From IMG/VR virus record IMGVR_UViG_3300028801_000004: DNA of 52,643 bases, one strand, 5' to 3'. The stretch's first letter is position 1. Each line of letters starts with the position of its first letter. This DNA comes from a virus. The position numbers and the translations under genes were made by a program. Of the stretch, positions 5,963-45,485 are shown piece after piece. A model generated the notes under the pieces. The model saw nothing but the letters and a program-made list of their open reading frames with translations, ran no database searches and had not been told where the DNA came from.

Positions 5963-6014
5963 GGAGTCAGGCGCAAAGCCGACTCGTTCTAACATACCGC
6001 TGAGGACCGACAAC

Positions 6015-10328: not shown

Positions 10329-10409
10329 GCACCCCAGAACCCGGCGCTGGGGTCGCGAAGTACCAAGCCGGTTTGTTTATCTCGTTCTTACCTCTAAGGA
10401 TCTTGAATC

Positions 10410-11243: not shown

Positions 11244-11380
11244 GCAGGAAAGCCTGGGCAATAAGGCAGCTAAGCGGCTCTTCGGGGCGGCATTGTCCTA
11301 GCACCTAATCCGAGTGGGTGTTTGCCGAATAGATTCGGAACCGCCCAGGTTCTACGATTCAAAACGCTGAGGACGAGATC

Positions 11381-12369: not shown

Positions 12370-12575
12370 TGGGCTTCGTACGCTATCTATTAGGAGTTAC
12401 CGCGATCTGTGCGGTCTGCGTCTTGATCTTTGCAGTTCTGATCATTGCTGCCGGTATGACCTTTAGCGGCGACACCGTAGAGTGGTGGCCCAGGCCTTTA
12501 GGGGTTTTTATCTTGGGTGCCTTTTTTATAGCTGTCTGTTACGTCTTCTATAGGTCGGGAAAGGAACAATCATGA
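12369..12575 (+). CDS. Small membrane protein (2 TM)
   Basis: TAATG overlap. Hydrophobic segments AICAVCVLIFAVLIIAAGM and LGVFILGAFFIAVCYVF. Confidence 0.6.
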   Translation: MGFVRYLLGVTAICAVCVLIFAVLIIAAGMTFSGDTVEWWPRPLGVFILGAFFIAVCYVFYRSGKEQS

Positions 12576-12769
12576 GCAAACCTATTAGCGATCCCGACAA
12601 GAGCACTGGAATTTATCGTGATGCCCTCGCCGCCTCGCATGCAGCACTACTGGCGGCACTTGAGATGATCCATCTGAGCTTTGGCGGTGGAAATGTGATC
12701 ACGTTCAGTGACAGCGATATCGAGCAAATAGCAGCCGCTATCAAGACTGCAAAGGAGTTGGGATGCTGA
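12572..12769 (+). CDS. Hypothetical protein (65 aa); chimeric paralogue
   Basis: Its SD plus first 7 codons match the start of the 12988 gene. Its body matches the 12094 gene. Confidence 0.55.
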   Translation: MSKPISDPDKSTGIYRDALAASHAALLAALEMIHLSFGGGNVITFSDSDIEQIAAAIKTAKELGC

Positions 12770-24528: not shown

Positions 24529-24710
24529 TCTCGTGGCGAGTGCATGGCTCAGGCGCTGTAGGGTACGGCCCGACGTGGCCGGAAGCGTACAAGATGTGGG
24601 CTGAGCATTACATGAGCGCAGCGCTATACGGCACAGGGCCGTCGCCAAAGAAATCGGTGCTTGGGTTGGACACCAAGCACCGGCGTTTGACATCGCCAAT
24701 TCCCGATTAA
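24435..24710 (+). CDS. Hypothetical protein; last ORF of the rightward arm (start uncertain)
   Basis: ORF in a different frame overlaps the HNH 3' end by about 94 nt if ATG 24435 is used. Its stop lies inside the convergent hairpin. Confidence 0.3.
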   Translation: MDHTGMQVVRPKARPIRAFVRPGQEPGDRTIISWRVHGSGAVGYGPTWPEAYKMWAEHYMSAALYGTGPSPKKSVLGLDTKHRRLTSPIPD

Positions 24711-24718: not shown

Positions 24719-25174
24719 CAGCGCGGAGATAAGCAGCAGCAGAGTATCGGGTGCCACTTTCGTGGCGTCTTCACTCAGGGTGTTGAATACCTTGATCAGT
24801 TGCAGCCCATAAGCCACGAGCATCGAACAGAACCAGCTATTCGGCGACGACCAAGTGGTCCCAGCCGCGAACGCAGCGATGGCCAGTTCGTTATAGGGCT
24901 TGCCGATCTGAGCCTGCAGGAACGCGTAGTACGCGGTCTCTTGGGCATCGGTGACGGGCAGAATCACCCGCCTGACCGTCTCGCCGGCCACGTACGAAGC
25001 GGGGCGGATCTGCACCCCTGCGGCGATACTACCGATCGAGTCGTCCCGCGCGCCGAGCAGAGTGCCATCCGGCAGCACCGTATCGACGTGGGAGTATTGG
25101 CCGCGGTCATACCACTTGATCAGAGCGGCTCCGAAACCCGAGCCTTCGACGAATTGAAGAACGATTTGGCCCAT
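24707..25174 (-). CDS. Permuted papain-like (YiiX/C92, NlpC/P60-related) cell-wall amidase/peptidase
   Basis: The order GQYSHVDTV (His) then NSWFCSMLV (Cys) matches the permuted family. Last gene of the lysis cassette. ATG 25174 shares 1 nt with the upstream stop. Confidence 0.55.
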   Translation of the reverse strand: MGQIVLQFVEGSGFGAALIKWYDRGQYSHVDTVLPDGTLLGARDDSIGSIAAGVQIRPASYVAGETVRRVILPVTDAQETAYYAFLQAQIGKPYNELAIAAFAAGTTWSSPNSWFCSMLVAYGLQLIKVFNTLSEDATKVAPDTLLLLISALFPI

Positions 25175-25542
25175 TATTGCACCGGGGGCGTATAGCCAGG
25201 AGTCGGGGTAGGCGCGGGCTGCGTCGGCGGGGCCATGAGTGTGATCGTGCCGTCCGTGGTGGTGAGCACCGCGACACTCGGTACAGGGCACGCGGTGAGT
25301 ACTGCTTTGACAGCGTTCGGGTTGCCCGTAGCGTTGCGCTGCAGAGCTCCGACCTTGATCGCGCAGGCGGCGTCACTCCAGCCGACGAAAGCCGCGTCGT
25401 CGATGGCCCGCACGTTCTGCCGAGCCCCTGCGTACCCGGATTCCCCGGCGTTGATGATGCCGCCCGTATAGGCGTTGATAGCCGAGCAGCCCGCCAAGGC
25501 TGCCAAGCTAGTCACAGTGCCGACAAACAATAGCCTGCGCAT
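25174..25542 (-). CDS. Lipoprotein (lipobox LAALAGC) with a Pro-rich C-terminus; o-spanin candidate
   Basis: MRRLLFVGTVTSLAALAG|C signal/lipobox. PPTQPAPTPTPGYTPP tail. Located in the lysis cassette. Confidence 0.55.
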   Translation of the reverse strand: MRRLLFVGTVTSLAALAGCSAINAYTGGIINAGESGYAGARQNVRAIDDAAFVGWSDAACAIKVGALQRNATGNPNAVKAVLTACPVPSVAVLTTTDGTITLMAPPTQPAPTPTPGYTPPVQ

Positions 25543-25554
25543 GACTAGCCCCAG

Positions 25555-25941
25555 TTACAGCGGGGCTTGGCCGACGAGCGGAGCGGCGGGTGCCGGTTCT
25601 GCTGTGGGTGCCGGGGCTTGGTCGACCATTTCGAGTGCGATTTGCGTCGGTGTGGGTAACGGTGCCGGGGTGAGCTTGGCAACGCCGGCCGCGATCACAG
25701 CCTGGACCACATTGGCCAGGGTCGTGGTGCTGGTATTTTCAATTTGGGGCAGGGTGGCCTGGAGCTCAGCCAGAACAGCCGTGCCTTTCAGAAAGCCCGA
25801 TGCCGGATTGGTCCATACGGCCGGGTTCGCGGCGATATCGGCCAAGGCCGAAGAGATGACGGGCATGGCGGCCACGACAACGTTATTCAGAAGCAGCTCG
25901 CCCAATTGGGCGAGTGCGGTGTCAGTCGAGCTGGTGGTCAT
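25555..25941 (-). CDS. Hypothetical protein with an N-proximal hydrophobic segment and a Pro-rich C-terminus; i-spanin candidate
   Basis: NNVVVAAMPVISSALADIAA segment. PAPLPTP...APAPTAEPAPAAP tail. Immediately upstream of the lipoprotein. Confidence 0.35.
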   Translation of the reverse strand: MTTSSTDTALAQLGELLLNNVVVAAMPVISSALADIAANPAVWTNPASGFLKGTAVLAELQATLPQIENTSTTTLANVVQAVIAAGVAKLTPAPLPTPTQIALEMVDQAPAPTAEPAPAAPLVGQAPL

Positions 25942-26018
25942 GATCAGTTCCTTGAGGGGTTGAGGATTAGGGGTTGCCGCGGCGTGGTCGTCCTCGCTTC
26001 GCCCCGCGCCGCGGGTAA

Positions 26019-26204
26019 TTACGACTTTGGGCTGACGAACGGGGCCGCTCCGTGCCAGCCGGTGATCAGCCCTGCGATACCGAGCGCGGCAGACTTCAGC
26101 GCCAGGTCGTCAATTTTCAGATAGTCCATGACAAGCACCAGACCCAAGAGCCCGGCGACTTTGAGCGTTTTGCTGGCTAGCGCGGCAGATGCGGCAGCAC
26201 CCAT
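26019..26204 (-). CDS. Small 2-TM membrane protein; holin candidate
   Basis: 61 aa with two hydrophobic helices. Immediately downstream of the muramidase. Confidence 0.5.
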   Translation of the reverse strand: MGAAASAALASKTLKVAGLLGLVLVMDYLKIDDLALKSAALGIAGLITGWHGAAPFVSPKS

Positions 26205-26215
26205 GATGCTTCTCC

Positions 26216-26728
26216 TTAGTTCTCAGCCACAGTTTGAAGGTTTTCAGCGCCGCGGTCGACCCACCCTGCGCCTTCGGCGGCCCATGCCGCACATTGTACC
26301 CAGTATTTAAACCGGGAGGCCATGAACTGCATCGCAACCTTCAGCGGGTCGGCGCTGCGCACGGCTGCCACGGTCTGAGCCCCGATCACCCCGTCCTGCG
26401 GCACTCCCACGGCGGCTTGGAGCCACTGAGCCGGGTGCCCGCCGTTGTACGCGGCGTCAAAGATCAGGTACCCGATTCGAATATCGAACTGGCTACACTG
26501 GTACGGGTCCCAATACTTAGTCTGCGCGAGTGCTTGGGCCTGGGTGTAAGTGAGCGTGGCGAAGTTCACATTGGGGAACCACTCCGCGCTGATACCGTAG
26601 CGGGAGCCCTTGAACTGGCCCTGCCCCACGATCCCGCTCGACCAGTTGCCCGGATCGTTGACGTCGGTACTCGGGGCCGTGCCCTCGGTGCCGACCACCT
26701 CGGCAAATACATCGTTGAAATTCATCAT
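26216..26728 (-). CDS. Endolysin: GH108 N-acetylmuramidase with a PG_binding_3 domain
   Basis: N-terminal FNDVFAEVVGTEG...DPGNWSSG (GH108-like EGG/DxGG pattern). C-terminal YW..FD.AYNGG...LQ..VG...DGVIG..T pattern. ATGA overlap with the upstream gene. Confidence 0.8.
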   Translation of the reverse strand: MMNFNDVFAEVVGTEGTAPSTDVNDPGNWSSGIVGQGQFKGSRYGISAEWFPNVNFATLTYTQAQALAQTKYWDPYQCSQFDIRIGYLIFDAAYNGGHPAQWLQAAVGVPQDGVIGAQTVAAVRSADPLKVAMQFMASRFKYWVQCAAWAAEGAGWVDRGAENLQTVAEN

Positions 26729-27039
26729 GATGTGAGCTTCGCCTTCAGATAGAACCCGGCCGCAGCAACCAGAAAGATCATCGCGGCCCAGATGCCCTTT
26801 TCCACCAACTTCAAACTGATCTCTCGCCAAAATTTCTCTCGGGCCTTGGCTTGCTCGATCACGGCCTCGTGGAATCGACGGTGGCTTTCAGGGTCCCCCT
26901 CGGGGAACCCCAGTAACACCTTGTCGACCTTGACGCTGACCTCTTCCAGCGTGACGGAATTCTGCGCATGGCGCCGGTCGAGATCAGTTTTGAGCGCCTT
27001 GATAGCGACGGTCAGGTCTTGCAAGGCTTCGGTATCCAC
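26725..27039 (-). CDS. Coiled-coil protein with a C-terminal TM anchor; lysis-associated (holin/antiholin-like) candidate
   Basis: GTG start 5 nt after GGAG. IWAAMIFLVAAAGFYL TM at the C-terminus. First gene of the lysis cassette. Confidence 0.45.
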   Translation of the reverse strand: MDTEALQDLTVAIKALKTDLDRRHAQNSVTLEEVSVKVDKVLLGFPEGDPESHRRFHEAVIEQAKAREKFWREISLKLVEKGIWAAMIFLVAAAGFYLKAKLTS

Positions 27040-27056: not shown

Positions 27057-29069
27057 TTAGGTGCCACTGTTCAAGCCGGTTGAACCGTCGCTGCCGCCTA
27101 CGGGGCCACTAGAACTATTCGAGACACGGGGCGATGAGAGCGTGGCTGCATTGAACGTGTTACCTACGACACCCACGCCCGTAGAAGTACTGTCTGCGAC
27201 TACGGTATTGGTGGCGAAACCGTCGAAACTGTTATTCGTGACCATAGAGCGCACGGAACCCGTCAGAGAGATTTGGGCGGTTGCCGGATGCACAGACTGG
27301 TTTATCACCGAATTCCCGGTGTACACGCCGCGTGCGGAACCAGTCTCCTCAATGGCGAAATTGTTATCGTTGAATGTCGTGTTTGATACATGGGTATTGG
27401 AGCTATTGGCAACCCGGACACCCACGGCGAACCCAAAATTCGCCTCCCCCCCAATCTGCATACCCGTGATCTGTACGGCGCCCGCGCTGTTGTCAACGAA
27501 GACCGCATCTGTTTCAGCCAGTACGCTGACAGGGTTGAGCCAGCCGTCCGAGATCGTGACCATCTGTTGCGCGGGTAGTGCGTTGATGAAGATGCCTTGT
27601 GCCGTGAACCCGTCGACGATCGGGTTCTGGATGATCACGTCCGCAAAGCCGCCAGCGGTGGCCGGTGTGGAGTAGTCGAAGAAATATCCAAAATTAACTT
27701 CGCCTGCTGCGGCGTTGCTAAAATAGAGGTCGGAGACATATAGCCCAGAAGCCCGATACCCTACCTGACCGGTGGGACCCCCAAAAGCACCTGTACCCTG
27801 TACGAACGTATCGCGCCAGGTCGAAGATTCATTGCCCCCAACACATCCCCCACCGCCCAGAATATTCCAACCGATGAAGCCGTTAGTAGCTGCTGAGTAG
27901 GTCGTCCCCATGCGCTGAAACGACGAGTCCGTGGCGCACTCCATTTGCACGCCAGTTAGAAACCCCGCAACCTGGATATCCGAGAGCTTCGCCAGCGCGG
28001 TGAAGGCAAGGGCAATACCGACGTTAGAGGTCCCTGGCGTGGCAGACACAATGTTAAAGCCGTTAAAGACATCATCGGCGAGCGGCGTGCCGAGCACCCC
28101 CGTGACTTCCAGTGCCGAGATATTCGTAGCTGTCGCTGTGAGCACCGTCGCATTGAGTCCGGCACCGAGCAACGAGACATGAGATTTGACATTATTGATC
28201 GGGTTGGCAAGGCCGTAATTACCGGCCGACATTTGGATCACTCCGCCGACATTCTCCAGCATCGTGTAGGCGAGGTTGAACGCTGACGAGTCATCCGACG
28301 TACCGTTCTTCGCGGCTCCGAACCACTCGGGGATAACAGTCATCCCGGTGTCGGCCTGGGGGACGAGGTTGCTGAAGATCTGCTGCCCACCTGCCATGAT
28401 CTGACGCTGAAACTGTACGACCTCGGTGCCCGCGGTGCCGATGATCTCACCGTTGTTCGTGAACTGCACTACGGTGGCAGCCCCAAAGGTCAAGTTCTCG
28501 CTGATCTTCGAAGCACAGGGCACGACCACGGTCGTTGGCGTCGCACCGATCGACGAGATCAAAGCCGTCCAAGCTGCGTTGTCGTTCGTTGTGCCGTTGC
28601 AGGTTGCGCCGTAGTCCGTGATATTGACGACTTGGTTCAACTTAGCGCCAACCGTGGTGGCCACAGCCCCCGTGCGGTTCAAGGTATAGGAGATATTCCC
28701 GCCCGAGAACGCGGTGAAGTCATTCACCCCCGTGAGTTGGTCCTCAGTCCAGAACGGGTGTGTGGGCGGGTTGGTGTCGGTAGCGGGGGACAAGATCAGC
28801 TTGTACTTGTCGCCCGCGATCAGCCAGACGTTCGCCTGCCCGTTGGCGTCGAGAATGATCGGGTTGGTGTTCGGCGTCGAGCCCGTCGAGCTGGTGTAAG
28901 TAGCCAGCGGGTTGGTGGTGCCTGCAGCGTAGCTGAAGAGCTGGCACCCCGAGCACGGCGTGCCGTTCTGGTTGAATTGCTGGATCGGCGTCGGCGTGAT
29001 ATTCACCGTGGCCGCTTGTGCGGACCCGGCAATGAGCACGGCCAGGAATAATGCAAAAAGTCTCTTCAC
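27057..29069 (-). CDS. Tailspike/depolymerase with a right-handed beta-helix (pectate-lyase-type) and an N-terminal Sec-like signal peptide
   Basis: NITDYGATCNGTTNDNAAWTALI motif. Gly/Asn/Thr/Val-rich beta-helix-like body. GTG 29069 lies 7 nt after GGAG. N-terminus is (M)KRLFALFLAVLIAGSAQA. Confidence 0.75.
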   Translation of the reverse strand: MKRLFALFLAVLIAGSAQAATVNITPTPIQQFNQNGTPCSGCQLFSYAAGTTNPLATYTSSTGSTPNTNPIILDANGQANVWLIAGDKYKLILSPATDTNPPTHPFWTEDQLTGVNDFTAFSGGNISYTLNRTGAVATTVGAKLNQVVNITDYGATCNGTTNDNAAWTALISSIGATPTTVVVPCASKISENLTFGAATVVQFTNNGEIIGTAGTEVVQFQRQIMAGGQQIFSNLVPQADTGMTVIPEWFGAAKNGTSDDSSAFNLAYTMLENVGGVIQMSAGNYGLANPINNVKSHVSLLGAGLNATVLTATATNISALEVTGVLGTPLADDVFNGFNIVSATPGTSNVGIALAFTALAKLSDIQVAGFLTGVQMECATDSSFQRMGTTYSAATNGFIGWNILGGGGCVGGNESSTWRDTFVQGTGAFGGPTGQVGYRASGLYVSDLYFSNAAAGEVNFGYFFDYSTPATAGGFADVIIQNPIVDGFTAQGIFINALPAQQMVTISDGWLNPVSVLAETDAVFVDNSAGAVQITGMQIGGEANFGFAVGVRVANSSNTHVSNTTFNDNNFAIEETGSARGVYTGNSVINQSVHPATAQISLTGSVRSMVTNNSFDGFATNTVVADSTSTGVGVVGNTFNAATLSSPRVSNSSSGPVGGSDGSTGLNSGT

Positions 29070-29086
29070 GTTACATCTCCAAGGGG

Positions 29087-30337
29087 TTAGCGGCGCTGGC
29101 ACTGCAGGTAGCCGTTCACAGAGGCGACGGCTACCGTGACGCTAGATGCTTCAGCAGTAAGGAAAATCGTTGTGGGGGTGGAGATCAAAATACGCGTAAC
29201 CATCGGGTTCAGGGTAGTCGTACCGGTGGCTCCGGTAGCCAGCGTGACACCCAAGTACGACGCATTCGGGTTCGCTGGAAGGGTAGCAGACACCGTACCA
29301 ATGCCCGCTACTATATCGGCCACGATAGCCCCGGTGGTGGGTAGGAAAAGCGCCTGCCCCCAGCAGTTCCAATCCCCGGCCGGCAGGTTGGTAATGCTGG
29401 TCGCATTGACCGTAGTGCCTGACGTAATGGCAGTGCCTGTGGTAGTGTTGCTTTGAAATTCACCGATACTTCCGGCCGTGACGGGGTTTCCTGTGGCGTT
29501 GCCCACGATGCCGGCCGGGTAGCTCGGGGTCAGTGCTCCGGTCATTGTCAACGTGCGCAGCGCGGCTGTGGCGGGCCACACGTCCGTCACACCGTCCGTC
29601 TGTAGCCACATTGAGGTGGAATTGTTGGTGCCTTGCGGGAGCACTACGCCAGTGCCGGTCGTGCCGCCTGCGCCGTTGCTCAGGAACACCGTGATGGTGG
29701 AAGCGCCCGTGGTGTTGTTCTGGAACAGGACTTCTCGGCTCGCGGTCAGGAGGGAGCCATTCTGGATGATGAACGTGACGTTGCCCGTGAGTACACCCGT
29801 CAGATTAATCGTGCGCTTGCCTGGGGGTACGGGCATCGTGGTGATCTGCGCGCCCGTCGTGTAACCAGTTCCACCATAGATCACAGATAGCGTGGACAGG
29901 CCGCTTCCCGACACGGAGGCGACTCGTATCACCGCATCTGAGTTTCCACCAGGGAGCGCGAGCAAATCCCCCACAGCGTACCCGGTGCCGGGGTTTATCA
30001 CAGTGACCACGCTGCTGATCACCCCGCCCGAGGCGAGAATGACGACCTGCCCGCCGCCGCCCAGCGTCGCTTGGTTGTATGTGCCGCCTGTTACCGCGAA
30101 GGGCACCGTGGCCGAGGAACTGGCGAGTTGCTGGTTAGCGAACGCATCGGTCGCCACGAGCGTGGAATTATCCAGCCGCCCCTGCGTCGTCGCGTTGATC
30201 GTAGCCCCAGTAATAGAGCCTCCTGTGATCGCGACGCTATTCGCTTGGTACCCGGTCTTGTCGAGAATGTTGTAGGCGTTGGTCTGCCCGAGCGCGAGCA
30301 GCGGAGCCAGCAATAAAACAGCAAGGAACTTTTTCAT
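29087..30337 (-). CDS. Tail fibre-like protein with an N-terminal Sec-like signal peptide
   Basis: MKKFLAVLLLAPLLALG. Thr/Gly/Asn-rich fibre-like body. C-terminal ..LPAGDWNCWG.. region is typical of fibre tips. GGAG SD. Confidence 0.7.
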   Translation of the reverse strand: MKKFLAVLLLAPLLALGQTNAYNILDKTGYQANSVAITGGSITGATINATTQGRLDNSTLVATDAFANQQLASSSATVPFAVTGGTYNQATLGGGGQVVILASGGVISSVVTVINPGTGYAVGDLLALPGGNSDAVIRVASVSGSGLSTLSVIYGGTGYTTGAQITTMPVPPGKRTINLTGVLTGNVTFIIQNGSLLTASREVLFQNNTTGASTITVFLSNGAGGTTGTGVVLPQGTNNSTSMWLQTDGVTDVWPATAALRTLTMTGALTPSYPAGIVGNATGNPVTAGSIGEFQSNTTTGTAITSGTTVNATSITNLPAGDWNCWGQALFLPTTGAIVADIVAGIGTVSATLPANPNASYLGVTLATGATGTTTLNPMVTRILISTPTTIFLTAEASSVTVAVASVNGYLQCQRR

Positions 30338-30338
30338 C

Positions 30339-30770
30339 TTAGCGCTCCAAGTTCGCGGACACACTCACCGTCATGCTCGGCGTTGAGGCCCCGATGAGCT
30401 GCACGCGCCACGTCACCGGCAACAAGTCGGAGGTGGCCCCGTTGGCGAGCGTACCGATGCCGGGGTACACCTTGAGCACCGTGGTACCCGTGCCCGTGAT
30501 TGCAGCGCCCACCAGGATGTCGTAGTAGACGCCCGGGTTCGCGGGGTCTTCACCTTGGATGTGGGGTGTGTACGAACCGCTCGTGAACGACGTCACGTTG
30601 ACGATCAGATGCAGCCCCTTGGAGTTGGGGTTGAACTGATCGTTCGAATTCACCGTAGCCGCCGTCAGTGCAGTAGGCTGGAATATCTTGGCTCCGGTAT
30701 TGACGATCTCCTGGGCCTGCACCAAGGGCGCGAGACACAGCAGGGCGAGAAGAATAAGCAAGCGTTTCAT
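30339..30770 (-). CDS. Small beta-rich protein with an N-terminal Sec-like signal peptide (143 aa)
   Basis: MKRLLILLALLCLAPLVQA|QE. AGGAG SD. Confidence 0.65.
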   Translation of the reverse strand: MKRLLILLALLCLAPLVQAQEIVNTGAKIFQPTALTAATVNSNDQFNPNSKGLHLIVNVTSFTSGSYTPHIQGEDPANPGVYYDILVGAAITGTGTTVLKVYPGIGTLANGATSDLLPVTWRVQLIGASTPSMTVSVSANLER

Positions 30771-30785
30771 GGTCGGGCTCCTAGA

Positions 30786-32126
30786 CTACCAATCCATTAA
30801 TTCATGGAAGCCCAGAGCTTTCGCCTTGGGCAACTTGTGCTCTAAATCCTTGCCGATGTCCGTGCGGGCCATGCGGTCCTGGTACTTGATGCTCGACACG
30901 GCCGCATAGACTTGCGGGATCGCATCGTGTAGATCTGGGCCCTTGGCCGTCATGCAGCAAATATAGTCGCCCGTCGTCTTGTACACGGGCTCCATCACGA
31001 CTTTGCCATTGTGCATCGTTGGTCCTTTTTCAATCATCAACTCAACGGGGGACACGTGCTCCCACACATCCTCAATGCCGGTGACGACACAGCCGACAGA
31101 TTTCCCAGGCTCTTCGTTCATTGCGGGGTAGGGTGGTTTGGCCATGACAACACCGACCGCACAGCGCTCGTCGACCTCCAGCGTGTCGCGCCCGTCGATT
31201 GCGTCGCGGCACCACTGCACTGGGTCGCCTTCGTGGCACTGGAACAGGATGTAGGTAGACGGCCACCCCATGCGGGCGGATACCTCGAACGGTACGAATT
31301 TACCTTTCTTGGTAATCGCGCCGCCGATGTCGAAGTCGCCCGTGTGGCCCATCTGCACGAGTGGTTCTTCGAACTTCATCAGCGCATCAACAAGTTGGCT
31401 GTCATCGGTATCTGTGAAGTACTTGCACACGGTACCCTGCTCTCCAGTCGAGGGGCCGTAGTCATCATTCATCAGCTTTTTATGCTCAATATTTAAATTT
31501 TTCGGGGCCAGGAACCCGGCACTACCGACCCAGCCCGAAATGCCGACCTCCATGAGTAGGTCGACTTTCTCTTGCAACATCAACTGGCCCTTGACCTTGA
31601 AGCCCTGCTCTTTCTTCAACTCCAGGAACGAGACTAGATCAGCGGGGTCGTGAGCGACGTAGGTGAGCGACTTGTCGGCCTCATCCCCCATCGGCTTCAG
31701 AACAAACGGATCTTGTGCTTTCCATGCGAACGCAAGCGCCGCGTCGAGTGTAGGGAACGTATGATATGCGGGCACCTCGAAGCCGAACTTCTCGAAATAC
31801 TGCATGCCAAGCCCGCGCTGAATTTCAAGCGCGGCACTCTTGGGCGTGGGGCCGAATACGGGGTAGCCGAATAGCCGCCACTTGTCGAGCTCGGCTGTGA
31901 TCTTGCGATCGTTGAAGAGATTTAAAATTAGGCCGTCTTTACCGGCCCATTTCATCGAATCCTGCCACGCTTTGACCTTCACGATACCGGGGAATCCGTC
32001 CCCGGATCGCAACGGGGAGCCATCCACGTGCTGAGGCATCCACCACCGGACCTCGTGGCCGGCTTCCGCCGATCTATAGGCGATATCCAAGCCTGTGCGA
32101 TCGAAGTCAATTATAAGGACGCGCAT
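30786..32126 (-). CDS. Divergent PurD-like ATP-grasp ligase (phosphoribosylamine-glycine ligase family)
   Basis: Collinear with PurD: MRVLIID.., FGPT..AA.E, P.V.KP.G, EHKKLMNDDYGPSTGEQG (cf. DHKR..DGD.GPNTGGMG), FEVSARMGWP (cf. EFNCRFGDP), VGVVMAKPPYP, R.DIG near the C-terminus. Confidence 0.75.
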   Translation of the reverse strand: MRVLIIDFDRTGLDIAYRSAEAGHEVRWWMPQHVDGSPLRSGDGFPGIVKVKAWQDSMKWAGKDGLILNLFNDRKITAELDKWRLFGYPVFGPTPKSAALEIQRGLGMQYFEKFGFEVPAYHTFPTLDAALAFAWKAQDPFVLKPMGDEADKSLTYVAHDPADLVSFLELKKEQGFKVKGQLMLQEKVDLLMEVGISGWVGSAGFLAPKNLNIEHKKLMNDDYGPSTGEQGTVCKYFTDTDDSQLVDALMKFEEPLVQMGHTGDFDIGGAITKKGKFVPFEVSARMGWPSTYILFQCHEGDPVQWCRDAIDGRDTLEVDERCAVGVVMAKPPYPAMNEEPGKSVGCVVTGIEDVWEHVSPVELMIEKGPTMHNGKVVMEPVYKTTGDYICCMTAKGPDLHDAIPQVYAAVSSIKYQDRMARTDIGKDLEHKLPKAKALGFHELMDW

Positions 32127-32209: not shown

Positions 32210-32398
32210 TCATTTCTTCGCCTTGTTCGGTATCTTGGCGCCACTCTTGCGCGCCTGCGAAAGTGCGGCGGCCACCGCTTGCTTATTCGCGGTGGCTTTA
32301 CCGAACTTCTTCTCGGTCGCCTTGAACGTCTTTCCGGTGTGAAATTCGGTAATGTTCTTGGAGACCGTGGCTTTACTTTTCCCGCGCGCGAGTGGCAT
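32210..32398 (-). CDS. Lys-rich small basic protein (62 aa), DUF6496-like
   Basis: ITEFHTGK....NKQAVAAALSQARKSGAKIP resembles small bacterial proteins with MHEFK.GKL...RKQAIAIALSEARKSGAK (from memory). 14 of 62 residues are Lys. Confidence 0.6.
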   Translation of the reverse strand: MPLARGKSKATVSKNITEFHTGKTFKATEKKFGKATANKQAVAAALSQARKSGAKIPNKAKK

Positions 32399-32400
32399 GA

Positions 32401-32562
32401 TTATTTCATCATCTTCGGAGCTTTCTTCGACTTCCGAGTGGTTGCCTCAGACTTTTTCACGTTCATGTTCAGTTTTTCCATGAACGCGGCAGGCTTTTTC
32501 CCACCTTTCTTGGGCATATCCGACGTCACGGCTTTCGCCATTTTCACAGGCATCTTTTTCAC
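32401..32562 (-). CDS. Lys-rich mini-protein (53 aa; MKKMPVKMAKAVTSDMPKKGGKKPAAFMEKLNMNVKKSEATTRKSKKAPKMMK), absent from the ORF track
   Basis: GTG start 6 nt after AGGAG. The SD overlaps the TAG of the upstream 975-aa gene. 16 of 53 residues are Lys. Stop lies 2 nt before the next ATG. Confidence 0.5.
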   Translation of the reverse strand: MKKMPVKMAKAVTSDMPKKGGKKPAAFMEKLNMNVKKSEATTRKSKKAPKMMK

Positions 32563-37738: not shown

Positions 37739-38191
37739 CTAGAGGATCTTTTTAACAACAATTTCAGTAGGCTGGTAGCCTAGAAACTTGAGAAATTTGC
37801 TCTTGTCCGAGTGTAATTTAGTCGTCTGTATCACTAACTTCACACCCCGGGCTTTCAGAGCCTTCTCGGCCTCCTTAAATAGCCGTAAAGCGACTCGGGG
37901 CTTATCTCTATGCTCGGGCACGATATAGTACACATCTACGAACCCCACTAACGTGGAATTATAGTGCAAATGTGGCTTCACAACGGTCGAATGGTACCCG
38001 ATCATCACACTATCCAACCTGACCGTAAGTAACTGTAGCTGACCTGCTGCATCCAACCCCTGGTAGCCTGCTACGTCCACATCGAGAGGTACCTCATCGC
38101 GATTAAGCGCAATTTCTTCCCAGTGCCGGGCGAGCAGAATGCGCGCCTCTGGGTAGAATTCCCCAAATCGCTCTAATTGATAGGTGATCAC
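37739..38191 (-). CDS. GNAT-family N-acetyltransferase
   Basis: Acetyl-CoA-binding-like stretch (VPEHRDKPRVALRLFKEAEKALKARG) and a C-terminal beta-strand pattern. 150 aa. GTGA overlap. Segment is visibly AT-richer than its flanks. Confidence 0.65.
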   Translation of the reverse strand: MITYQLERFGEFYPEARILLARHWEEIALNRDEVPLDVDVAGYQGLDAAGQLQLLTVRLDSVMIGYHSTVVKPHLHYNSTLVGFVDVYYIVPEHRDKPRVALRLFKEAEKALKARGVKLVIQTTKLHSDKSKFLKFLGYQPTEIVVKKIL

Positions 38192-38757
38192 GGTGCGCCA
38201 CGCCCAGTGTGGATATCTATGATGAGGTGCAAGCGATCGTCTACGCTGTTATTTATAACTTCGTGCTCGGCCTGATTCTGGAACCACCAAAATTCTCCCG
38301 TGCGCATCTGAACTTGCTCGTCTCCAGCGCGGAAAATACATCCTGGGGCGGCCTGTAGCACGATGTGGAAGCGCTCGTAGTACGCCGCATGGTCCCCTGA
38401 ATCGGTATGCGGAGTAATCCGCCCGCCCGGGGCCAACTTCGTGATCATGCAACGCCCCAAGCGCTCTCCTTGCACGCGGGCCATGATCTGGAATATCAGG
38501 AACCGAGCCTCGGGTAGTCTTGCGAGGGCGGGGTAGTTTATTGACTCGTGCTGATCAAGAATCGAGGGGTCTTCACCACCGTTTTCAAACAGCGAGATAT
38601 CATTGAAACGTAGCCAGATATCGGATACCTGCGCATGCGGGGTATTTTCATGCGTCGTGCGCAACGTATGCTGATTCCAGAGTTCTGGCATCTGTTTAAG
38701 CGCTACCAGAAGTGGAAGTACGTCGACATTCTCACCCATTTTGAAGAAATTTATCAC
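38188..38757 (-). CDS. Cupin-fold Fe(II)/2OG oxygenase, aspartyl/asparaginyl beta-hydroxylase-like
   Basis: LAPGGRITPHTDSG (HxD), ..GEFWWFQNQAEHEVIN (distal His), ..RLHLIID pattern. GTG start overlaps the upstream stop; an alternative ATG is at 38739. Confidence 0.65.
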   Translation of the reverse strand: MINFFKMGENVDVLPLLVALKQMPELWNQHTLRTTHENTPHAQVSDIWLRFNDISLFENGGEDPSILDQHESINYPALARLPEARFLIFQIMARVQGERLGRCMITKLAPGGRITPHTDSGDHAAYYERFHIVLQAAPGCIFRAGDEQVQMRTGEFWWFQNQAEHEVINNSVDDRLHLIIDIHTGRGAP

Positions 38758-39119: not shown

Positions 39120-39866
39120 TTAAGCGGACTCATATGTGCCGCCTATCGTCATTTTATTGCCCGATGCGCCGGGGAAAGTATCATCGTAGAATACGATCTC
39201 TACGTGGTTACCATCAGGCACCCCGGTCGTACCCGACAGAGCCTTGCCCGTAGCGCTTATCTCTCGACCGGCGCAAGTCTGGAACCCAGAGGGTAGTGAC
39301 ACGTTCGCCTTTACCGGTAATGTTGCCAGCACGGCCGAGGCTGCAGTGCCCACTGTGGTTACATCGACCTCTAGCATAAAACTTACTGTCTTGCCGATAC
39401 GCTGAAATCTGCCTGCCGCTGACACCGTGGTGAATGTACCTGTGTTGGCTGTCACGACGGGGGTGTATGCCTGCCAAGAGCCTGGGGGTATCTGGTCGAG
39501 CTGAACCAAGTCATGTAGCAGGCGTCGATCCGGCTTGACGACGGGCTCGAAGTCCGATGCTCTCAGGTCCGTGCGCCGAGCGCTGGGCGCCAGGTCATTG
39601 AATAGCTGTAGCTGTTGTCTCGCGGCAGCAGGCACCTCAAGCGGGTGGTTAAGAATCGCGTCGTACAAATCCTGCTTGAGCTTGGCCAAGTCATCGATCG
39701 TGGATGTCTGGTCGAGCTGCGCCAAGAGTGACACGTCGGCCAGCGTGCCTGTGCCACCTGGAGGGGTATTCGGCTGCACCAGCACGTTCAAGGTCGCGAG
39801 AAAAATGAACCACTCGCGGGCCACCGTGCCATCTTTATTCAGAAAGGGGAGTTGGGCGCTTATCAT
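39120..39866 (-). CDS. Hypothetical tail protein (P22 gp26 needle/plug position, 248 aa)
   Basis: ATGA overlap with the gp10-like gene. Assignment rests on synteny and size only. Confidence 0.45.
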   Translation of the reverse strand: MISAQLPFLNKDGTVAREWFIFLATLNVLVQPNTPPGGTGTLADVSLLAQLDQTSTIDDLAKLKQDLYDAILNHPLEVPAAARQQLQLFNDLAPSARRTDLRASDFEPVVKPDRRLLHDLVQLDQIPPGSWQAYTPVVTANTGTFTTVSAAGRFQRIGKTVSFMLEVDVTTVGTAASAVLATLPVKANVSLPSGFQTCAGREISATGKALSGTTGVPDGNHVEIVFYDDTFPGASGNKMTIGGTYESA

Positions 39867-41302
39867 ACGGGCACCGCATCGACTTCAGCGGCCACAATCG
39901 CCACCGGTACCGGGTCAGTGCCCGACAATTCAAAGATGCGATCCAGCCCGCCACCGCGCTTCGTCATACCCAAGCGCTGATAGATGATACGCGTGCCGGT
40001 ATTGCCCACTCGGTTGCCGTCCGTCCACACCTCGTTAGACCAGTTATTGCCGTCATCATCCGACCAGCGCAGCACGAATTGCGGCGTCGTGCCATCGGGG
40101 ATGCTTAGCCCCGTCTGGCAATCGATCAGCAGTGAGTCGAAGCGCATCGGCTCGTACACGCGCTTGCCGGGGGGCAGCGCGCGCCAGGAGCGCAGCCACT
40201 TACGCACGGCGCCATTGTCGGTGTAGGTATTGTTGTCAAAGGCGTACAAGTTGCCATTCTGGAAATCCCCCACGACCTGCTTGCCGTAGGCATAGGCGAA
40301 CGTGGCGCCGATATGGCGGCTAAAAGTGCCGTTCTCGAATGCCGCGCGCTCGTGCCACAACTGGGTCGAGCCGTCGTAGCAGAACGTTTTGTTGCCCGTG
40401 GGGAATGTGATCACATAAAAGAAGTGCCCAGTGTCCTGGTACACGTACGCGGTGGCGTCGCTGATCAGCGACATCTTGCCGATCTCAAACTCGATCGAGT
40501 GCGTCGAGATGCGTACCGCTTGGTAACCGTTCGACATGTACACGACACCCTGGCCCTGCTCGTCGGCGCCGAGCCACACGATACTGTCGCCAATGCGGGA
40601 AACTGAGTACGCCGCGGCGCACCCCTGCGGGATCTGTACGCCTTGGAGACGCTGAAACGCGAAATTAGGCAGCCCCGCGTTGATCCACACTTCGGTGCGG
40701 TTCGTTTTGAAAATCCAGACCTCGCGGTGCAAATCGTACAGTGCCACGATGCCACCCGGCGCGGAGTCGGCCGACGTGAAGTTCAAGGCGCTCCAGGTCG
40801 TGAAGTCGTTCAAGTTCGATTGGAACCACTCTTCGGTACCCACGAGGTTGACCAGCGCAAATCCATCCTGGTACGCGAGCAGCGAGGGTTGCGTGACGAA
40901 CGGAGCGCCGGGGAGCACCTGTGTAAAAGTGAGCGTGCCGAAGATCAGCACCCAGCCGGCAGCACCGTCGACCACCAGCAGTTGCAGCCCGTTGTCGACC
41001 ATTTGCACGACGCCAGTGTTGGTCGTGAGCGTGCCGACCAGAACCGAGCCGAAGATACTGCTGACACTGTACAGCCCGTTGCCACTGACCACATAAAGAG
41101 TCCCGGTGGAGGCCGTATAGGAGCCTCGCTGCGGGCCTGGCCCGACCGTGCCGAGCAAGTCTAGCCCTGGGCACCCGAAGAGCCCAGCGACGGCTTTCCC
41201 ATCCTTGCCACTGACGACTTCAGCGTATAGGTTCACGAGCCGGTTATCGGCCAGCGTCTTAGACCGGCTAACCGAATACCCGCCGAGGATCGGGGACTCC
41301 AC
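39863..41302 (-). CDS. Tail hub / packaged-DNA stabilisation protein, P22 gp10-like (479 aa)
   Basis: N-terminal ..NRLVNLYAE....GK......PGL.. pattern. Beta-propeller-like composition. Size matches gp10 (about 472 aa, from memory). GTG start. Confidence 0.6.
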   Translation of the reverse strand: MESPILGGYSVSRSKTLADNRLVNLYAEVVSGKDGKAVAGLFGCPGLDLLGTVGPGPQRGSYTASTGTLYVVSGNGLYSVSSIFGSVLVGTLTTNTGVVQMVDNGLQLLVVDGAAGWVLIFGTLTFTQVLPGAPFVTQPSLLAYQDGFALVNLVGTEEWFQSNLNDFTTWSALNFTSADSAPGGIVALYDLHREVWIFKTNRTEVWINAGLPNFAFQRLQGVQIPQGCAAAYSVSRIGDSIVWLGADEQGQGVVYMSNGYQAVRISTHSIEFEIGKMSLISDATAYVYQDTGHFFYVITFPTGNKTFCYDGSTQLWHERAAFENGTFSRHIGATFAYAYGKQVVGDFQNGNLYAFDNNTYTDNGAVRKWLRSWRALPPGKRVYEPMRFDSLLIDCQTGLSIPDGTTPQFVLRWSDDDGNNWSNEVWTDGNRVGNTGTRIIYQRLGMTKRGGGLDRIFELSGTDPVPVAIVAAEVDAVPV

Positions 41303-41692: not shown

Positions 41693-42430
41693 TCATTGGT
41701 AGCGTCCGCTATAAATATTAAAATTGGGCATCCCAGACTTTGTGATCTCACGATCGAACTGCGCGACATTGTTGCGTCTATTCGAGCGCTTAACATTCGC
41801 CAGCGACTTCGCCGCGATCTTCACCACGTCGGTCGAGACCGTAGCGTTCTTGCAGAACGGCGCGAGCAACAGCGCCAAGTTCGCCTGGATAGCCAATTCA
41901 TACCCAGGCGGCAAGTTGAACGGCGTCGTGAGCGTCGACAAGTCCGCGAACTGCTGGAACGAGTCGAAGAACAAGGTGTACGCGATCGTGGGCGTGGGCC
42001 AGATGTTGATCACGCCCAGCGGCATCTGCGGATCGTAGAACAGCGTATCCGGGATGTTAGAGGTCGTCGTCACACCCCGGTTAGCAATCTGGTTCCATTG
42101 CTCGCGGGTCACGATGTCGACGCGGTAGTTATTCGCGTTCGTGTCCTGCAAGTACGCGGCGCCCGGGCCTTCGATCAAACGGATCGGGCGCGCGGACTGC
42201 ACATTCGCGCCGCCCGAGAGCCCGATCGTGTATGAGTTCTGCCCCACCACGAGCGGAAAGCTCTGTTCCAAAATCGCAAAGCACGCAAGATCCTCGTTCG
42301 ACCAGGAATCGAGCATCTTATTGAGCTGATCGAGACCAAGCGCCGAGTCAGCACCCGTCATGGTCTCATTCGCCCCGTAATAGCCGATCATTTGATACGA
42401 GGTGAGGATCATTGCGCCCGCGGTGGACAT
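41693..42430 (-). CDS. Head-tail adaptor candidate (P22 gp4 position, 245 aa)
   Basis: Synteny only. Pattern ..FYDPQMPLGVINIWPTP.. resembles podovirus adaptor/tubular-A-like proteins (weak recollection). Confidence 0.45.
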   Translation of the reverse strand: MSTAGAMILTSYQMIGYYGANETMTGADSALGLDQLNKMLDSWSNEDLACFAILEQSFPLVVGQNSYTIGLSGGANVQSARPIRLIEGPGAAYLQDTNANNYRVDIVTREQWNQIANRGVTTTSNIPDTLFYDPQMPLGVINIWPTPTIAYTLFFDSFQQFADLSTLTTPFNLPPGYELAIQANLALLLAPFCKNATVSTDVVKIAAKSLANVKRSNRRNNVAQFDREITKSGMPNFNIYSGRYQ

Positions 42431-43520: not shown

Positions 43521-44960
43521 TTAAGCGCCTGCGATCAAGCCCAAAGTGGCCAAGGCGTTGCGGATCGCGTTACCCTGGTCATCTGCTGCATTGTCCGCGT
43601 TGTTCACGGTCTGATACACGCAGTTCCCGGCGCCCGGCAGCGGCGTTTGGAAGTTGCCGATGGTGTACACCTCGGTCGGCGGCACGATCGGCGCGGTCGT
43701 CAGGTTGGCATAGTTGACCGCCAAAGTGTTGGCCGCCGAGACGCGCACGCCGAGGATCGCCAAGCCACGAGTCGCGCTCGGCTTGTTGATCCATACCGGG
43801 GTACCGACCACAAGCGCGTTCGGCGACGCGATCGTGAAGGTCTGCTCAGCGGTCGTGAGAGCTGCCACCGAGGCCGGAGCCAACGACTGCTGGAACACCA
43901 CGAGCGGGGCCACAGGTGCCAAGCGCGCGGTACGGATGCCGTACACCTCGGAAGCGGTCGGGGTTGCGCCCGTGCCGATGCCCAGGTAGTACAGCGTGGC
44001 CGTGTTGGCCGTTAGCACCGCGCCACCGACTGCTGCAGCGTTGGTGGCGTTCGCACCGTTGGTCGGCTTCGAGATACCGGTCACGATGTCGGTCGCTTGC
44101 ACGCCCGTCAGGGTGGTGCTGCCGCCCGAGGCCACGATGCCTGCGCCAATCGCGCCGACGGTGCCGACGTTGAAGCCATACAGCACGTCGTTATTCACGG
44201 CGTCTAGGCCCAAGGTGGACACGACCGAGTAGGTCTCGGCAGCGGTCGGGGTGATTGCCGCAGCGGTCGGGTTGATGAAGGTGATACCGAGCACGTTGTT
44301 GTTCACCACTCGGCAACCACCGATATCCAGGCCCGCCTGGGCGGTCGGCTTGTTGACTTGCACGAGCGAACCTACTTTCAGGCCCACTACAGCAAATTGC
44401 TGCTCGACGGCTGAATTCGCGGCCACCGCAACCGGCGACAAAACTGCAGTGAGCTTCGCAATACCCAGGCCGCGCAACGCTACAACCCCGTACACCTCGG
44501 ATGCGGTCGGCGTGATGTTACCGCCAGCCGGCACGTTGTCGAACGTGATGCCCAGCGTGTTGCCGCTCGACACCCGCACGTTGCCCACACCGAGACCCGC
44601 TTGCGAGGTCGGCTTGTTCACATACACGAGGTCGCCAGCGGCGAGCAGCATGGTGCCGCCCGTGCCGGACTGGATCGTGAGAGTCTGCTCAGCGGTTGTC
44701 GATTGCGCGACGGCACTGGGCGATTGGGTCGAGCTATAAGTGGCGATGACCCCGGCTCCGAGCCCTCGGGCCAGGGCGGCTTGGGCTGTACCAAACGGTT
44801 GGGTCTGAGGCGTGCCACCGAAGAAACCAATGGCGTCCGGCAGGCCAGCCGAGTTCAAAAGTCGTCCGAGCAACGTCCCCGGCGTACCGCCGTCGGACAG
44901 TTGTTTCGGGAGGTCGTTACCGAAGAGGGTACCTTCGGGTGTCGGGGGATTGCTAGGCAT
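43521..44960 (-). CDS. Capsid decoration/accessory head protein candidate with four tandem ~80-95-aa repeats
   Basis: Repeat consensus AEQ(T/Q)(L/F).I......V.(V/I)NKP(T/S).Q/RGL..G..RV...N.L.I.F.N......TPTA.E(V/T)Y.V occurs four times. The gene follows the coat gene. Confidence 0.55.
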   Translation of the reverse strand: MPSNPPTPEGTLFGNDLPKQLSDGGTPGTLLGRLLNSAGLPDAIGFFGGTPQTQPFGTAQAALARGLGAGVIATYSSTQSPSAVAQSTTAEQTLTIQSGTGGTMLLAAGDLVYVNKPTSQAGLGVGNVRVSSGNTLGITFDNVPAGGNITPTASEVYGVVALRGLGIAKLTAVLSPVAVAANSAVEQQFAVVGLKVGSLVQVNKPTAQAGLDIGGCRVVNNNVLGITFINPTAAAITPTAAETYSVVSTLGLDAVNNDVLYGFNVGTVGAIGAGIVASGGSTTLTGVQATDIVTGISKPTNGANATNAAAVGGAVLTANTATLYYLGIGTGATPTASEVYGIRTARLAPVAPLVVFQQSLAPASVAALTTAEQTFTIASPNALVVGTPVWINKPSATRGLAILGVRVSAANTLAVNYANLTTAPIVPPTEVYTIGNFQTPLPGAGNCVYQTVNNADNAADDQGNAIRNALATLGLIAGA

Positions 44961-44972
44961 TTTGATTCTCCT

Positions 44973-45485
44973 TCAAGTTAGGTAGGCTACGACTGCTGGT
45001 ATTCCAACATCTGCCAAAAGCTTTTCGTAAGCACCAATTCTCACATTGCAAGTGTGGCAGAGCAACCCACGCACTTTCCCGGTTTTGTGGCAATGGTCTA
45101 CATTCCAACGGCCTGCGGCCCATTTGCCAGTCTTCCCTGTTCGACCTACCTCGCTGCTCTTGCACAAGGCGCACTTATTATCTTGCGCTAGCACCATCGC
45201 ATCGTACTGCTCGACAGTCAAACCATACGTGTACTTCAGTTGCCGCTGCCAGCCAAGTCTTGCGTAAGCATACATCTCAGGGTTGTCTACCCTATGCTCC
45301 TTGGCCTTAATCTTGCACGCCTCTCGGTACTTCTCGTTCTTTGCGTAATAAGCGCGCATTTTTTCTTTGTCGCACTCTTTACACTGGTTGCGCAAGTAGC
45401 CGCGCTTTTTATCAGAACACCAGTACTCCGAGAGAGGTAGGCCCTTCTGGCACTTCTTACAAACTTTCGTTGTTTCTGGCTGCAT
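44973..45485 (-). CDS. Endonuclease VII-family (HNH-like) nuclease with N-terminal zinc fingers; free-standing homing-endonuclease candidate
   Basis: CALC....VDHCHKTGKVRGLLCHTCNVRIGAYE is the Endonuclease_7 signature. N-terminal CKKC...CKEC. AT-richer segment. GAGGA SD. Confidence 0.8.
   Translation of the reverse strand: MQPETTKVCKKCQKGLPLSEYWCSDKKRGYLRNQCKECDKEKMRAYYAKNEKYREACKIKAKEHRVDNPEMYAYARLGWQRQLKYTYGLTVEQYDAMVLAQDNKCALCKSSEVGRTGKTGKWAAGRWNVDHCHKTGKVRGLLCHTCNVRIGAYEKLLADVGIPAVVAYLT

Follow-up and report, generated by a model that had tools for sequence, protein, structure and literature searches.

Predicted Sec-type signal peptides on the tailspike-region proteins of an uncultured P22-type podovirus and a possible route of assembly in two compartments

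Assembly of a tailed phage is, by the textbook, wholly cytoplasmic, and the locus described here raises the question of why a tailspike and its two upstream neighbors should each begin with what looks like an export signal. The locus lies in IMG/VR virus record IMGVR_UViG_3300028801_000004, a stretch of 52,643 nucleotides (~52.6 kb; the whole of it is called the window here) that is a complete-looking podovirus genome with P22-type morphogenesis, and comprises three consecutive late genes, A, B, and C, which encode a jelly-roll protein, a fiber-like protein, and a beta-helix tailspike. A preliminary description of this DNA had drawn attention to the hydrophobic N-termini of the three proteins and had offered three explanations: uncleaved helices, export, or attachment to the particle at or past the inner membrane. 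The observation stands: it is not random, and it recurs among phages. Judged from the sequences and their homologues, the three N-termini are very probably genuine, cleavable Sec-type (signal peptidase I) signals, with all three proteins exported, and the tailspike keeps a conserved virion-docking domain that, in leader-bearing copies only, may carry a cysteine pair.

Predicted signal peptides of A, B, and C

Genes A, B, and C fill the tailspike slot of the late operon, with ejection proteins on one side and lysis genes on the other, and are tightly packed next to the lysis cassette (gaps of 15 nt before A, 1 nt between A and B, 17 nt between B and C, and 17 nt after C). A scan of the minus strand among the three genes found no promoter-like or terminator-like site. 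Gene A (30339..30770 (-), 143 aa) begins with ATG behind the Shine-Dalgarno (SD) sequence AGGAG at 30778..30782 (-); gene B (29087..30337 (-), 416 aa) begins with ATG behind GGAG at 30345..30348 (-), inside the end of A; and gene C (27057..29069 (-), 670 aa) begins with GTG behind GGAG at 29077..29080 (-), all three SD sites having been read from the sequence. The predicted signal peptide of A (30714..30770 (-), residues 1-19) is MKRLLILLALLCLAPLVQA, with QE after the cleavage site and a mature part of 124 aa; that of B (30287..30337 (-)) is MKKFLAVLLLAPLLALG, followed by QTNAYNILD; and that of C (29013..29069 (-), residues 1-19) is (M)KRLFALFLAVLIAGSAQA, followed by AT, a head-binding domain at about residues 20-100, and the beta-helix body.

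All three leaders have the anatomy of signal peptides. The n-regions are positively charged (K2R3 in A, K2K3 in B, K2R3 in C) with no acidic residue before the cleavage site, the h-regions consist of 12-15 uncharged hydrophobic residues (mean Kyte-Doolittle 2.9-3.5, the best 10-residue window starting at residue 4-6), and the cleavage sites are small-x-small (V-Q-A|Q in A, A-L-G|Q in B, A-Q-A|A in C). The leaders contain neither a lipobox nor a twin-Arg motif, and the +1 residues, read from the sequences, are Q, Q, and A. The signal-peptide call rests on a hand-written n/h/c-region heuristic together with comparative evidence. When all open reading frames were scanned in this way, A, B, and C were the only late genes flagged, although the scan misses the o-spanin lipoprotein with its lipobox; for 3 leader-bearing genes among ~70, adjacency by chance has a probability of ~0.001. 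Inspection of the C-termini by eye revealed no evident sorting signal of the PEP-CTERM, beta-barrel, or T9SS-like kinds.

Start sites agree with translation of the leaders. The open frame of B extends to a GTG at 30364, and both the database gene call (P0111) and the orthologue in L008 begin at MKKF (L-numbers denote related phage contigs or loci, P-numbers homologous proteins). The leader of C is taken to be translated because its orthologues P0002 and P0003 begin with ATG at the same place (MKRLL.., MRRFL..), with leader sequences that differ from that of C. A search for in-frame starts after the leader took in the window, L006, L008, and L011, and only C of the window has one, a GTG at codon 22, two residues past the predicted cleavage site and without an SD sequence; B has no in-frame start after codon 9, and no ATG, GTG, or TTG lies in frame between the leader and residue 40 of the orthologous spikes in L006 and L011. 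A dual start as a general mechanism was rejected on this count. The preliminary description had reported three consecutive late reading frames with a Lys/Arg n-region, a hydrophobic core, and a small-x-small site, and no SD-backed start just downstream of the hydrophobic segments; both statements are borne out, on the minus strand.

Comparison among homologues suggests what the leaders are. The A, B, and C families are all large in metagenomes, and in each of them members with and without a leader can be aligned over the full length of the mature part, with many leaderless members beginning at the mature start. Leaders are present as a feature in dozens of homologues. In 46 leader-bearing homologues of A, the leader is the fastest-evolving part of the protein (pairwise identity 0.32, vs. 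0.56 for the mature part), and the sequence logo shows K at position 2, ~12 hydrophobic columns, Ala at -3 in 31/46, Ala at -1 in 42/46, and Gln at +1 in 43/46. The B and C homologues have the same -3/-1/+1 preferences; Gln at +1 is found in 39 of 53 B and 16 of 19 C homologues (sets P0001-P0331), which suggests that the mature N-termini would be blocked by pyroglutamate. Beyond composition, the leaders of A, B, and C have nothing in common with each other. We read the leaders as signal peptides rather than structural helices because the sequence drifts while the physico-chemical pattern is near-invariant, and this pattern, which is the opposite of that of a conserved docking or trimerization helix, is the one predicted for cleaved export signals. 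Conservation of the hydrophobic N-termini, proposed earlier as a point to follow, thus holds for the pattern in leader-bearing copies, not for the sequence, and many homologues are leaderless.

Mature parts of the three proteins

The body of C matched the pectate-lyase-like family PF12708 in Pfam (residues 250-452, E 1.8e-7, 31.6 bits against a cut-off of 27), a beta-helix; together with the head-binding domain this confirms the identification of the 670-aa protein as a tailspike. PHROGs gave no match for C, and a database copy (P0001), 100% identical to C, is found on 24 contigs. The head-binding, or virion-docking, domain (28770..29012 (-)) starts where mature C is predicted to start. In the solved structure 7eeq_A ("Tailspike head-binding domain"), residues 2-78 correspond to residues 19-96 of C (E 4e-6), and there are weaker matches to 9vyg ("Tail spike protein"); no source paper for PDB codes 7EEQ and 9VYG was found in the literature. 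Spikes of Xanthomonas phage PBR31 and metagenomic podoviruses match the N-terminal domain as well. Leaderless homologues, annotated tail spikes included, begin 1-2 residues before the aligned position of the domain in C, and since the domain alignment begins there, cleavage at Ala19|Ala20 would make C begin exactly like a normal spike. Identity of the docking domain lies at 63-67% whether the comparison is with leader-bearing copies (P0002, P0332) or with leaderless ones (P0333, P0024), and this equal identity indicates that the domain is probably still under constraint, with no sign of relaxation. C is the sole spike encoded by the window genome: no other spike was found, the early half encoding replication proteins and the late half head, hub, ejection, and lysis proteins.

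The docking domain of C carries a cysteine pair, Cys39-Ser-Gly-Cys42 (28944..28955 (-)), where leaderless homologues have L/V-x-x-G; the surrounding motif is P-L-x-G-G-K-L-F/Y in the leaderless proteins and P-C-S-G-C-Q-L-F in C. A search with residues 1-124 of C against a library of 1.84 billion cluster representatives returned 17,133 relatives at E <= 1e-3, and about one-third of the 150 closest cluster representatives (the best 150 of these relatives) of the head-binding domain carry a leader. CxxC was then scored in 229 proteins, representatives of 50%-identity clusters drawn from the matches of this search and from the homologues of the first search with C. The pair was present in 43 leader-bearing proteins and missing from 19, and it was present in none of the 167 leaderless proteins (Fisher test, 6e-32, a statistic that ignores shared ancestry); a single Cys was never seen. 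The 19 leader-bearing copies without the pair look like intermediates. Because the pair occurs solely in leader-bearing copies, it is most simply read as a disulfide that would form in the oxidizing periplasm.

B matched PHROG 11393 ("tail fiber protein"), with a tip similar to that of the BcepC6B tail fiber. Its model (predicted local distance difference test score, pLDDT, 77) has a jelly-roll/TNF-like tip, and part of the model matched, in Foldseek, the jelly-roll of infectious bursal disease virus VP2, ExsFA/BxpB, the N-domain of the Burkholderia lectin Bc2L-C, and cyanophage tail-fiber domains. Residues 35-415 of B align to residues 84-481 of P0112, its closest leaderless homologue, and in B the leader and 17 further residues stand in place of the 83-aa N-terminal domain of that protein, which is taken to be a virion-docking domain. 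The motif Q-x-N-x-Y-N-I-L-D at the mature N-terminus of B recurs in B-like proteins of L008, L009, L010, L012, L022, and L067. Cysteine is also more frequent in leader-bearing members of this family, whose mature parts hold a mean of 3.3 Cys vs. 1.2 in leaderless members and are never Cys-free (0/53, vs. 20/67). Cys324 in the tip domain (29366..29368 (-)) and Cys413 (29099..29101 (-)) are the two halves of a co-varying pair: both columns are Cys in P0111, P0208, and P0164, all of the leader type, and V/L and A in 34 leaderless homologues. At 3/21 leader-type tips against 0/34 leaderless tips, the numbers are small and the pair is weak as independent evidence.

Neither Pfam nor PHROGs gave a match for A. 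Its AlphaFold model (pLDDT 91) consists of a helix at residues 2-12 followed by a single jelly-roll, and the model matched, in Foldseek, PirA, the cement protein of phage BPP-1 (3j4u_H, E 8e-4), and the exported PBSX protein XepA (6i56). Among 101 homologues of A, 48 are leader-bearing (~140 aa) and the rest leaderless (~120 aa), and leaderless members of the family adjoin capsid and scaffold genes in many unrelated phages. A scan of a genome collection with the A family returned only two leaderless relatives (a Bacteroidales metagenome-assembled genome and Cohnella) and no host for the leader-bearing forms; a metagenome scan returned mostly IMG/VR loci again. The treatment of the three proteins as one set, as first proposed, therefore does not hold, since C keeps its docking domain, B is without the N-terminal domain of its leaderless relatives, and A comes from a head-module jelly-roll family.

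Related phages and competing explanations

In the phage group of the window, the common gene order is hub, hydroxylase-like cupin, acetyltransferase-like gene, ejection proteins, ATP-grasp gene, and A. The ATP-grasp gene lies directly upstream of a leader-bearing A in most members (L006, L008-L011, L064, L066); in L067, it precedes a leaderless spike instead. A sole spike with both leader and CxxC is encoded by the window and by L006 and L068 of the same group, and also, within the structural modules that are sequenced, by the independent phage contigs L069, L070, L071, and L011. Such spikes are usually followed by further leader-bearing fiber-like genes: in L069, another P22-like phage, a 963-aa spike with 21 Cys is followed by a leader-bearing 356-aa fiber, and L071 has three consecutive leader-bearing genes. 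A and B also occur as a two-gene cassette in unrelated phages. In L012, a phage with a baseplate-J-type module, A and a B-like gene follow the tail-fiber and chaperone genes, and in the myovirus L065 a leader-bearing A, after the lysis genes, adjoins a leaderless 376-aa protein. As predicted from these contigs, the leader-bearing pattern is recurrent and widespread in uncultured phages, not a one-off.

The only link to a named host genus is a Caballeronia calidae prophage (L004), in which 10001..12604 encodes P0005, a leader-bearing beta-helix protein of 867 aa that shares 56% identity with the body of C; this makes a host within the Burkholderiales likely. The gene follows a leaderless tail-fiber gene after a gap of 234 nt and precedes the lysis genes of a prophage of a different type, where P0005 is the sole leader bearer.

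The reading that we favor, and hold tentatively, is that A, B, and C are exported and oxidized in the periplasm and that C docks on spike-less particles at lysis. Late in infection, the host-recognition proteins would be exported over the inner membrane, and heads and tail hubs would assemble in the cytoplasm. Cleavage by signal peptidase I would leave C starting at its canonical head-binding domain, and mature, oxidized C trimers would accumulate in the periplasm. Holin, endolysin, and spanins would then merge the compartments, and C would dock on DNA-filled, spike-less particles at or just after lysis: holin lesions would bring periplasmic spikes and cytoplasmic particles into one compartment, with the outer membrane intact until the spanins act, and docking would take place in that interval or in the concentrated lysate just after it. 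A and B may associate with each other and attach in a secondary step, or may act as free envelope- or glycan-binding, lectin-like proteins; an accessory role is favored for them because they are present in phages with fibers of their own. Docking is the step that, above all others, we infer, because C is the sole spike and its docking domain is retained, conserved, and CxxC-adapted in exported copies. In P22, the tailspike is the final component to be added; particles without spikes are stable and can be rendered infectious in vitro by supplying spikes. Exported endolysins, moreover, show late phage proteins being stored in the envelope ahead of holin triggering. The broader proposition, that tailed-phage assembly in widespread uncultured podoviruses is split over two compartments, with the entire adsorption apparatus exported by Sec and mounted on particles at lysis, is more tentative still; as a route of assembly it is possible and, if true, new for tailed phages.

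Several observations weigh against docking at lysis. Six members of the group (L008, L009, L010, L064, L066, L067) have a leaderless spike with no Cys pair, and leaders on A and on short B-like or other fiber-like proteins; in those six phages at least, the proteins predicted to be exported are accessories and not the virion spike. The A + B cassette of L012 and L065, phages with a leaderless tail fiber of their own, points to a non-virion role of A and B. The mature part of A has no Cys, and oxidative folding cannot account for its export. The 19 leader-bearing copies of the docking domain without CxxC, and the ancestry shared among the proteins that were scored, are further points on this side. 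Every relative is an uncultured metagenomic contig, and tblastn of A against 50,697 phage records gave no match, so that no cultured phage among them carries A. To succeed within the short time around lysis, docking would need high efficiency, and the needle-position protein of 248 aa, described below, could in principle be the receptor-binding protein of the virion.

The main rival explanation is that A, B, and C are exported and never bound to the virion, C serving as a free periplasmic or released depolymerase, B as a lectin-tipped fiber, and A as a jelly-roll protein. Such proteins might trim nascent O-antigen or exopolysaccharide (EPS) so that progeny are not trapped on debris, might help exit, or might be stable soluble enzymes, and adsorption of the virion would fall to a different protein, for instance the needle-position protein encoded at 39120..39866. 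We regard this as doubtful, though a serious contender. The six phages with leaders on accessory proteins only speak for it, as do the A + B cassette found after the lysis genes of myoviruses with their own fibers, the absence from B of the N-terminal domain of its leaderless relatives, and the Caballeronia prophage, in which the beta-helix protein alone carries a leader, beyond a 234-nt gap from a leaderless fiber. Precedents are known in XepA, which is exported and absent from particles, in WceF, an exported cellular EPS trimmer with a tailspike fold, and in PBR31 gp40, a leader-bearing esterase that resembles tail-associated hydrolases and adjoins lysis genes. However, free proteins would leave the window, L006, L068, and L069 without a tailspike, despite a P22-type hub and relatives that carry the same head-binding domain on the virion, and in L006 the needle-position protein has only 88 aa. 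Nor do they account for the head-binding domain that C has kept and that, even in leader-bearing copies far apart from each other, is no less conserved than in leaderless spikes; the P22 spike enzyme can fold and work when this domain is missing, which also counts against this explanation. Moreover, lysis frees cytoplasmic proteins anyway, and export is unnecessary merely to release an enzyme.

The remaining explanations are far less probable. One gene might give two products, a full-length exported form and a leaderless form, from an internal start or from escape of export, that equips the virion. Phage depolymerases are known to occur in soluble and virion-bound forms produced from alternative starts, and GTG22 of C would give an N-terminus like that of the leaderless homologues, but no SD sequence precedes it, L006 and L011 have no conserved internal start, B has none after codon 9, and the position of CxxC within the docking domain itself makes the exported form the adapted one; we consider two products improbable. 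Uncleaved helices for docking, trimerization, or membrane insertion are less probable again. Each of the three proteins has such a segment, and the AlphaFold model of A shows a helix at residues 2-12; against this, the leaders are the least conserved segment, lack mutual sequence likeness, and end in an A-x-A|Q site that hardly varies. Most homologues have no leader, including a solved virion-bound spike whose chain begins at the mature position, the N-terminal positive charge of the leaders would place the protein body outside the cytoplasm, and the Cys pair tracks the leader. Wrongly extended starts that are hydrophobic by chance could be suspected from the GTG of C and from the open frames of B and C, which reach further upstream; GGAG or AGGAG at -8 to -12 of each start, orthologues with ATG at the same position, leaders kept in dozens of homologues, and the low chance of three adjacent leaders effectively refute such an artifact. 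Of the explanations first offered, the docking or trimerization helix thus falls, on its poor conservation, the kept A-x-A|Q site, its absence from most homologues, and its co-variation with the Cys pair; export is well supported as a prediction by leader anatomy, conservation pattern, and the leader-linked Cys pair; and joining of the particle beyond the inner membrane is what we would favor for C, as argued above.

Genome context and comparison with known systems

The early half of the window, on the plus strand, encodes replication proteins (primase/helicase-like DUF3854/DUF5906, family A DNA polymerase, PD-(D/E)XK nuclease, exonuclease, SNF2 helicase). The late half, on the minus strand, encodes terminase, a P22-like portal, scaffold, a P22-type coat, a gp10-like hub, and three ejection proteins; the ATP-grasp enzyme, A, B, and C come next in that order, and then the lysis cassette, which includes a GH108 endolysin and an o-spanin lipoprotein. 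Coat, portal, and hub uphold the initial assignment to the P22-type podoviruses. Portals of Xanthomonas phage PBR31, Rhodoferax phage P26218, and freshwater metagenomic podoviruses share ~39% identity with that of the window. The region of A, B, and C shows a level GC content, and a recent foreign origin of the three genes was rejected; megablast of the region against the 50,697 phage records found no match.

An adaptor is encoded at 41693..42430. The gp10-like tail hub (39863..41302 (-)) matched PHROG 578, head closure Hc3, at E 2e-105. The hub is followed by the 248-aa protein in the position of the gp26 needle (39120..39866 (-)), which has a weak C-terminal PHROG match, no match in a PDB sequence search, and is the only leaderless candidate host-contact protein in the window. 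Proteins following the hub in otherwise different phages share a short N-terminal motif (…W-[FY]-x-x-[LF]…) and range in length from 88 to 278 aa (besides that of the window, L066 273..782, L069 4093..4929, L011 10432..11103, and L006 929..1195); this protein is probably a needle or plug with a variable C-terminal knob. An Asp/Asn beta-hydroxylase-like cupin (38188..38757 (-)) and a GNAT-like acetyltransferase (37739..38191 (-)) are encoded within the virion module, and directly upstream of A lies the gene for the ATP-grasp/GARS-like enzyme (30786..32126 (-), Pfam GARS_C/GARS_A), which brings the putative modifying enzymes among the structural and exported genes to three, with no known role. 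Between the large ejection protein and the ATP-grasp gene are two very small, very basic proteins of 62 and 53 aa (32210..32398 (-) and 32401..32562 (-)); the pair is conserved in relatives, and the L006 homologue of the first has a weak DUF6496 match.

Directly downstream of C, the lysis cassette (25174..27039 (-)) encodes a 104-aa protein with a C-terminal transmembrane segment, the GH108 endolysin (Pfam GH108 and PG_binding_3), which has no leader, a small protein with two transmembrane segments, a 128-aa protein, and the o-spanin lipoprotein (25174..25542), which carries the lipobox L-A-G-C. The 104-aa protein occupies the holin position (26725..27039 (-)) and has a long, charged, coiled-coil-like N-terminal part before its single transmembrane segment; L006, L064, and L066 have a hydrophobic, holin-like protein of 56-70 aa there instead. 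A strong hairpin terminator (24655..24682 (-), 10-bp stem with 7 G-C pairs) ends the late operon where the early plus-strand and late minus-strand blocks converge. Elsewhere in the late operon, an endonuclease VII gene (44973..45485 (-)) is inserted between the coat gene and the head-completion genes, and just downstream of the coat gene and this endonuclease gene a 479-aa protein (43521..44960 (-)) contains about four internal repeats of ~95 aa; it had no Pfam, PHROG, or PDB sequence match and could be a head decoration or fiber protein. In the early region, a 33-nt tandem repeat of ~7 copies (6473..6718 (+)) encodes (SAADSAADSAR)n within the C-terminal half of a 304-aa protein (5961..6875) with no Pfam match.

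A tailspike with an intact, conserved docking domain, a predicted cleavable export signal, and a Cys pair is hard to fit to the textbook picture. Attachment of such spikes to the particle at lysis, if it occurs, would amount to a new assembly route, with the final maturation of the virion taking place outside the cytoplasm and timed by lysis; infectivity would depend on the Sec, signal peptidase, and Dsb machinery of the host, and lysis timing would gain a second role. Should the proteins instead be enzymes and lectins that are exported and stay free, they would form a large, unrecognized class of phage envelope effectors derived from receptor-binding proteins. In biotechnology, such spikes may need periplasmic expression to fold. 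Annotation pipelines that call these proteins "tail fiber" miss the leader, which host-range prediction from receptor-binding proteins should consider.

No report of a leader-bearing tailspike or fiber in a tailed phage was found in the full-text literature, a coverage that excludes subscription journals, so that a precedent is possible. The nearest literature concerns exported endolysins, WceF, MAT fibers, cargo signals of extracellular contractile injection systems (eCIS), XepA, and the PBR31 esterase, which is the closest mention. Endolysins exported by Sec build up beyond the membrane, where they stay until holin triggering (PMC6116005). These and the signal-arrest-release (SAR) endolysins, for example Lys44 of Oenococcus phage fOg44, are made late, carry a signal peptide, and wait in the envelope, and would be the closest mechanistic analogy to A, B, and C; they differ in function, being enzymes of lysis with no virion or receptor-binding role, and have no homology to A, B, and C.

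XepA of PBSX is likewise late, exported, absent from particles, and encoded between tail-fiber and lysis genes (PMC6834076), and the position and leader of A would fit a XepA-like late exported protein of the lysis cassette, its export being predicted. The beta-sandwich of XepA superposes on the model of A (TMq 0.58, root-mean-square deviation 2.5 A, ~11% identity, Foldseek E ~3e-3); this is a weak match between a structure and a model that suggests similarity of fold, from which homologous descent does not follow. XepA is a two-domain pentameric dumbbell from a defective prophage of a Gram-positive host, Bacillus subtilis, whereas A is a single jelly-roll of 124 residues. The jelly-roll cement protein of the Bordetella phage BPP-1 (3j4u chain H) resembles A in size and fold; A differs in having no detectable sequence similarity to it, in its leader, and in its location in the fiber/lysis region, and the capsid of the window is built on a P22-type coat.

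Among cellular proteins, Pantoea WceF trims exopolysaccharide, and Bdellovibrio MAT fibers have lectin or TNF-like tips (PMC7949094, PMC10769870). Both resemble A, B, and C in combining an N-terminal export signal with a trimeric tailspike- or fiber-like body and variable tips. WceF, however, has a twin-arginine translocation (Tat) signal and belongs to an EPS gene cluster, the MAT proteins have a 130-aa domain of their own after the signal, and both are chromosomal bacterial genes, whereas A, B, and C have no RR motif and belong to the late operon of a phage of lytic type, with a virion-docking domain retained in C.

T5 (Llp), phi80 (Cor), and lambda (Lom) also encode exported proteins next to their receptor-binding genes, and these act as exclusion or conversion factors. 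Those are small lipoproteins or outer-membrane proteins without relation to receptor-binding proteins, while A, B, and C lack a lipobox and two of the three are homologues of receptor-binding proteins. C stands closest to the P22-type tailspikes (P22 gp9, Sf6, the PBR31 tail spike, 7eeq), with which it shares genome position, a homologous head-binding domain, and a pectate-lyase-like beta-helix body. The known spikes of this type are leaderless and cytoplasmic, and C differs from them in the 19-residue Sec-type leader before its docking domain and in its Cys-x-x-Cys motif; in every feature tested except the cytoplasmic, leaderless state, C is a P22-type tailspike.

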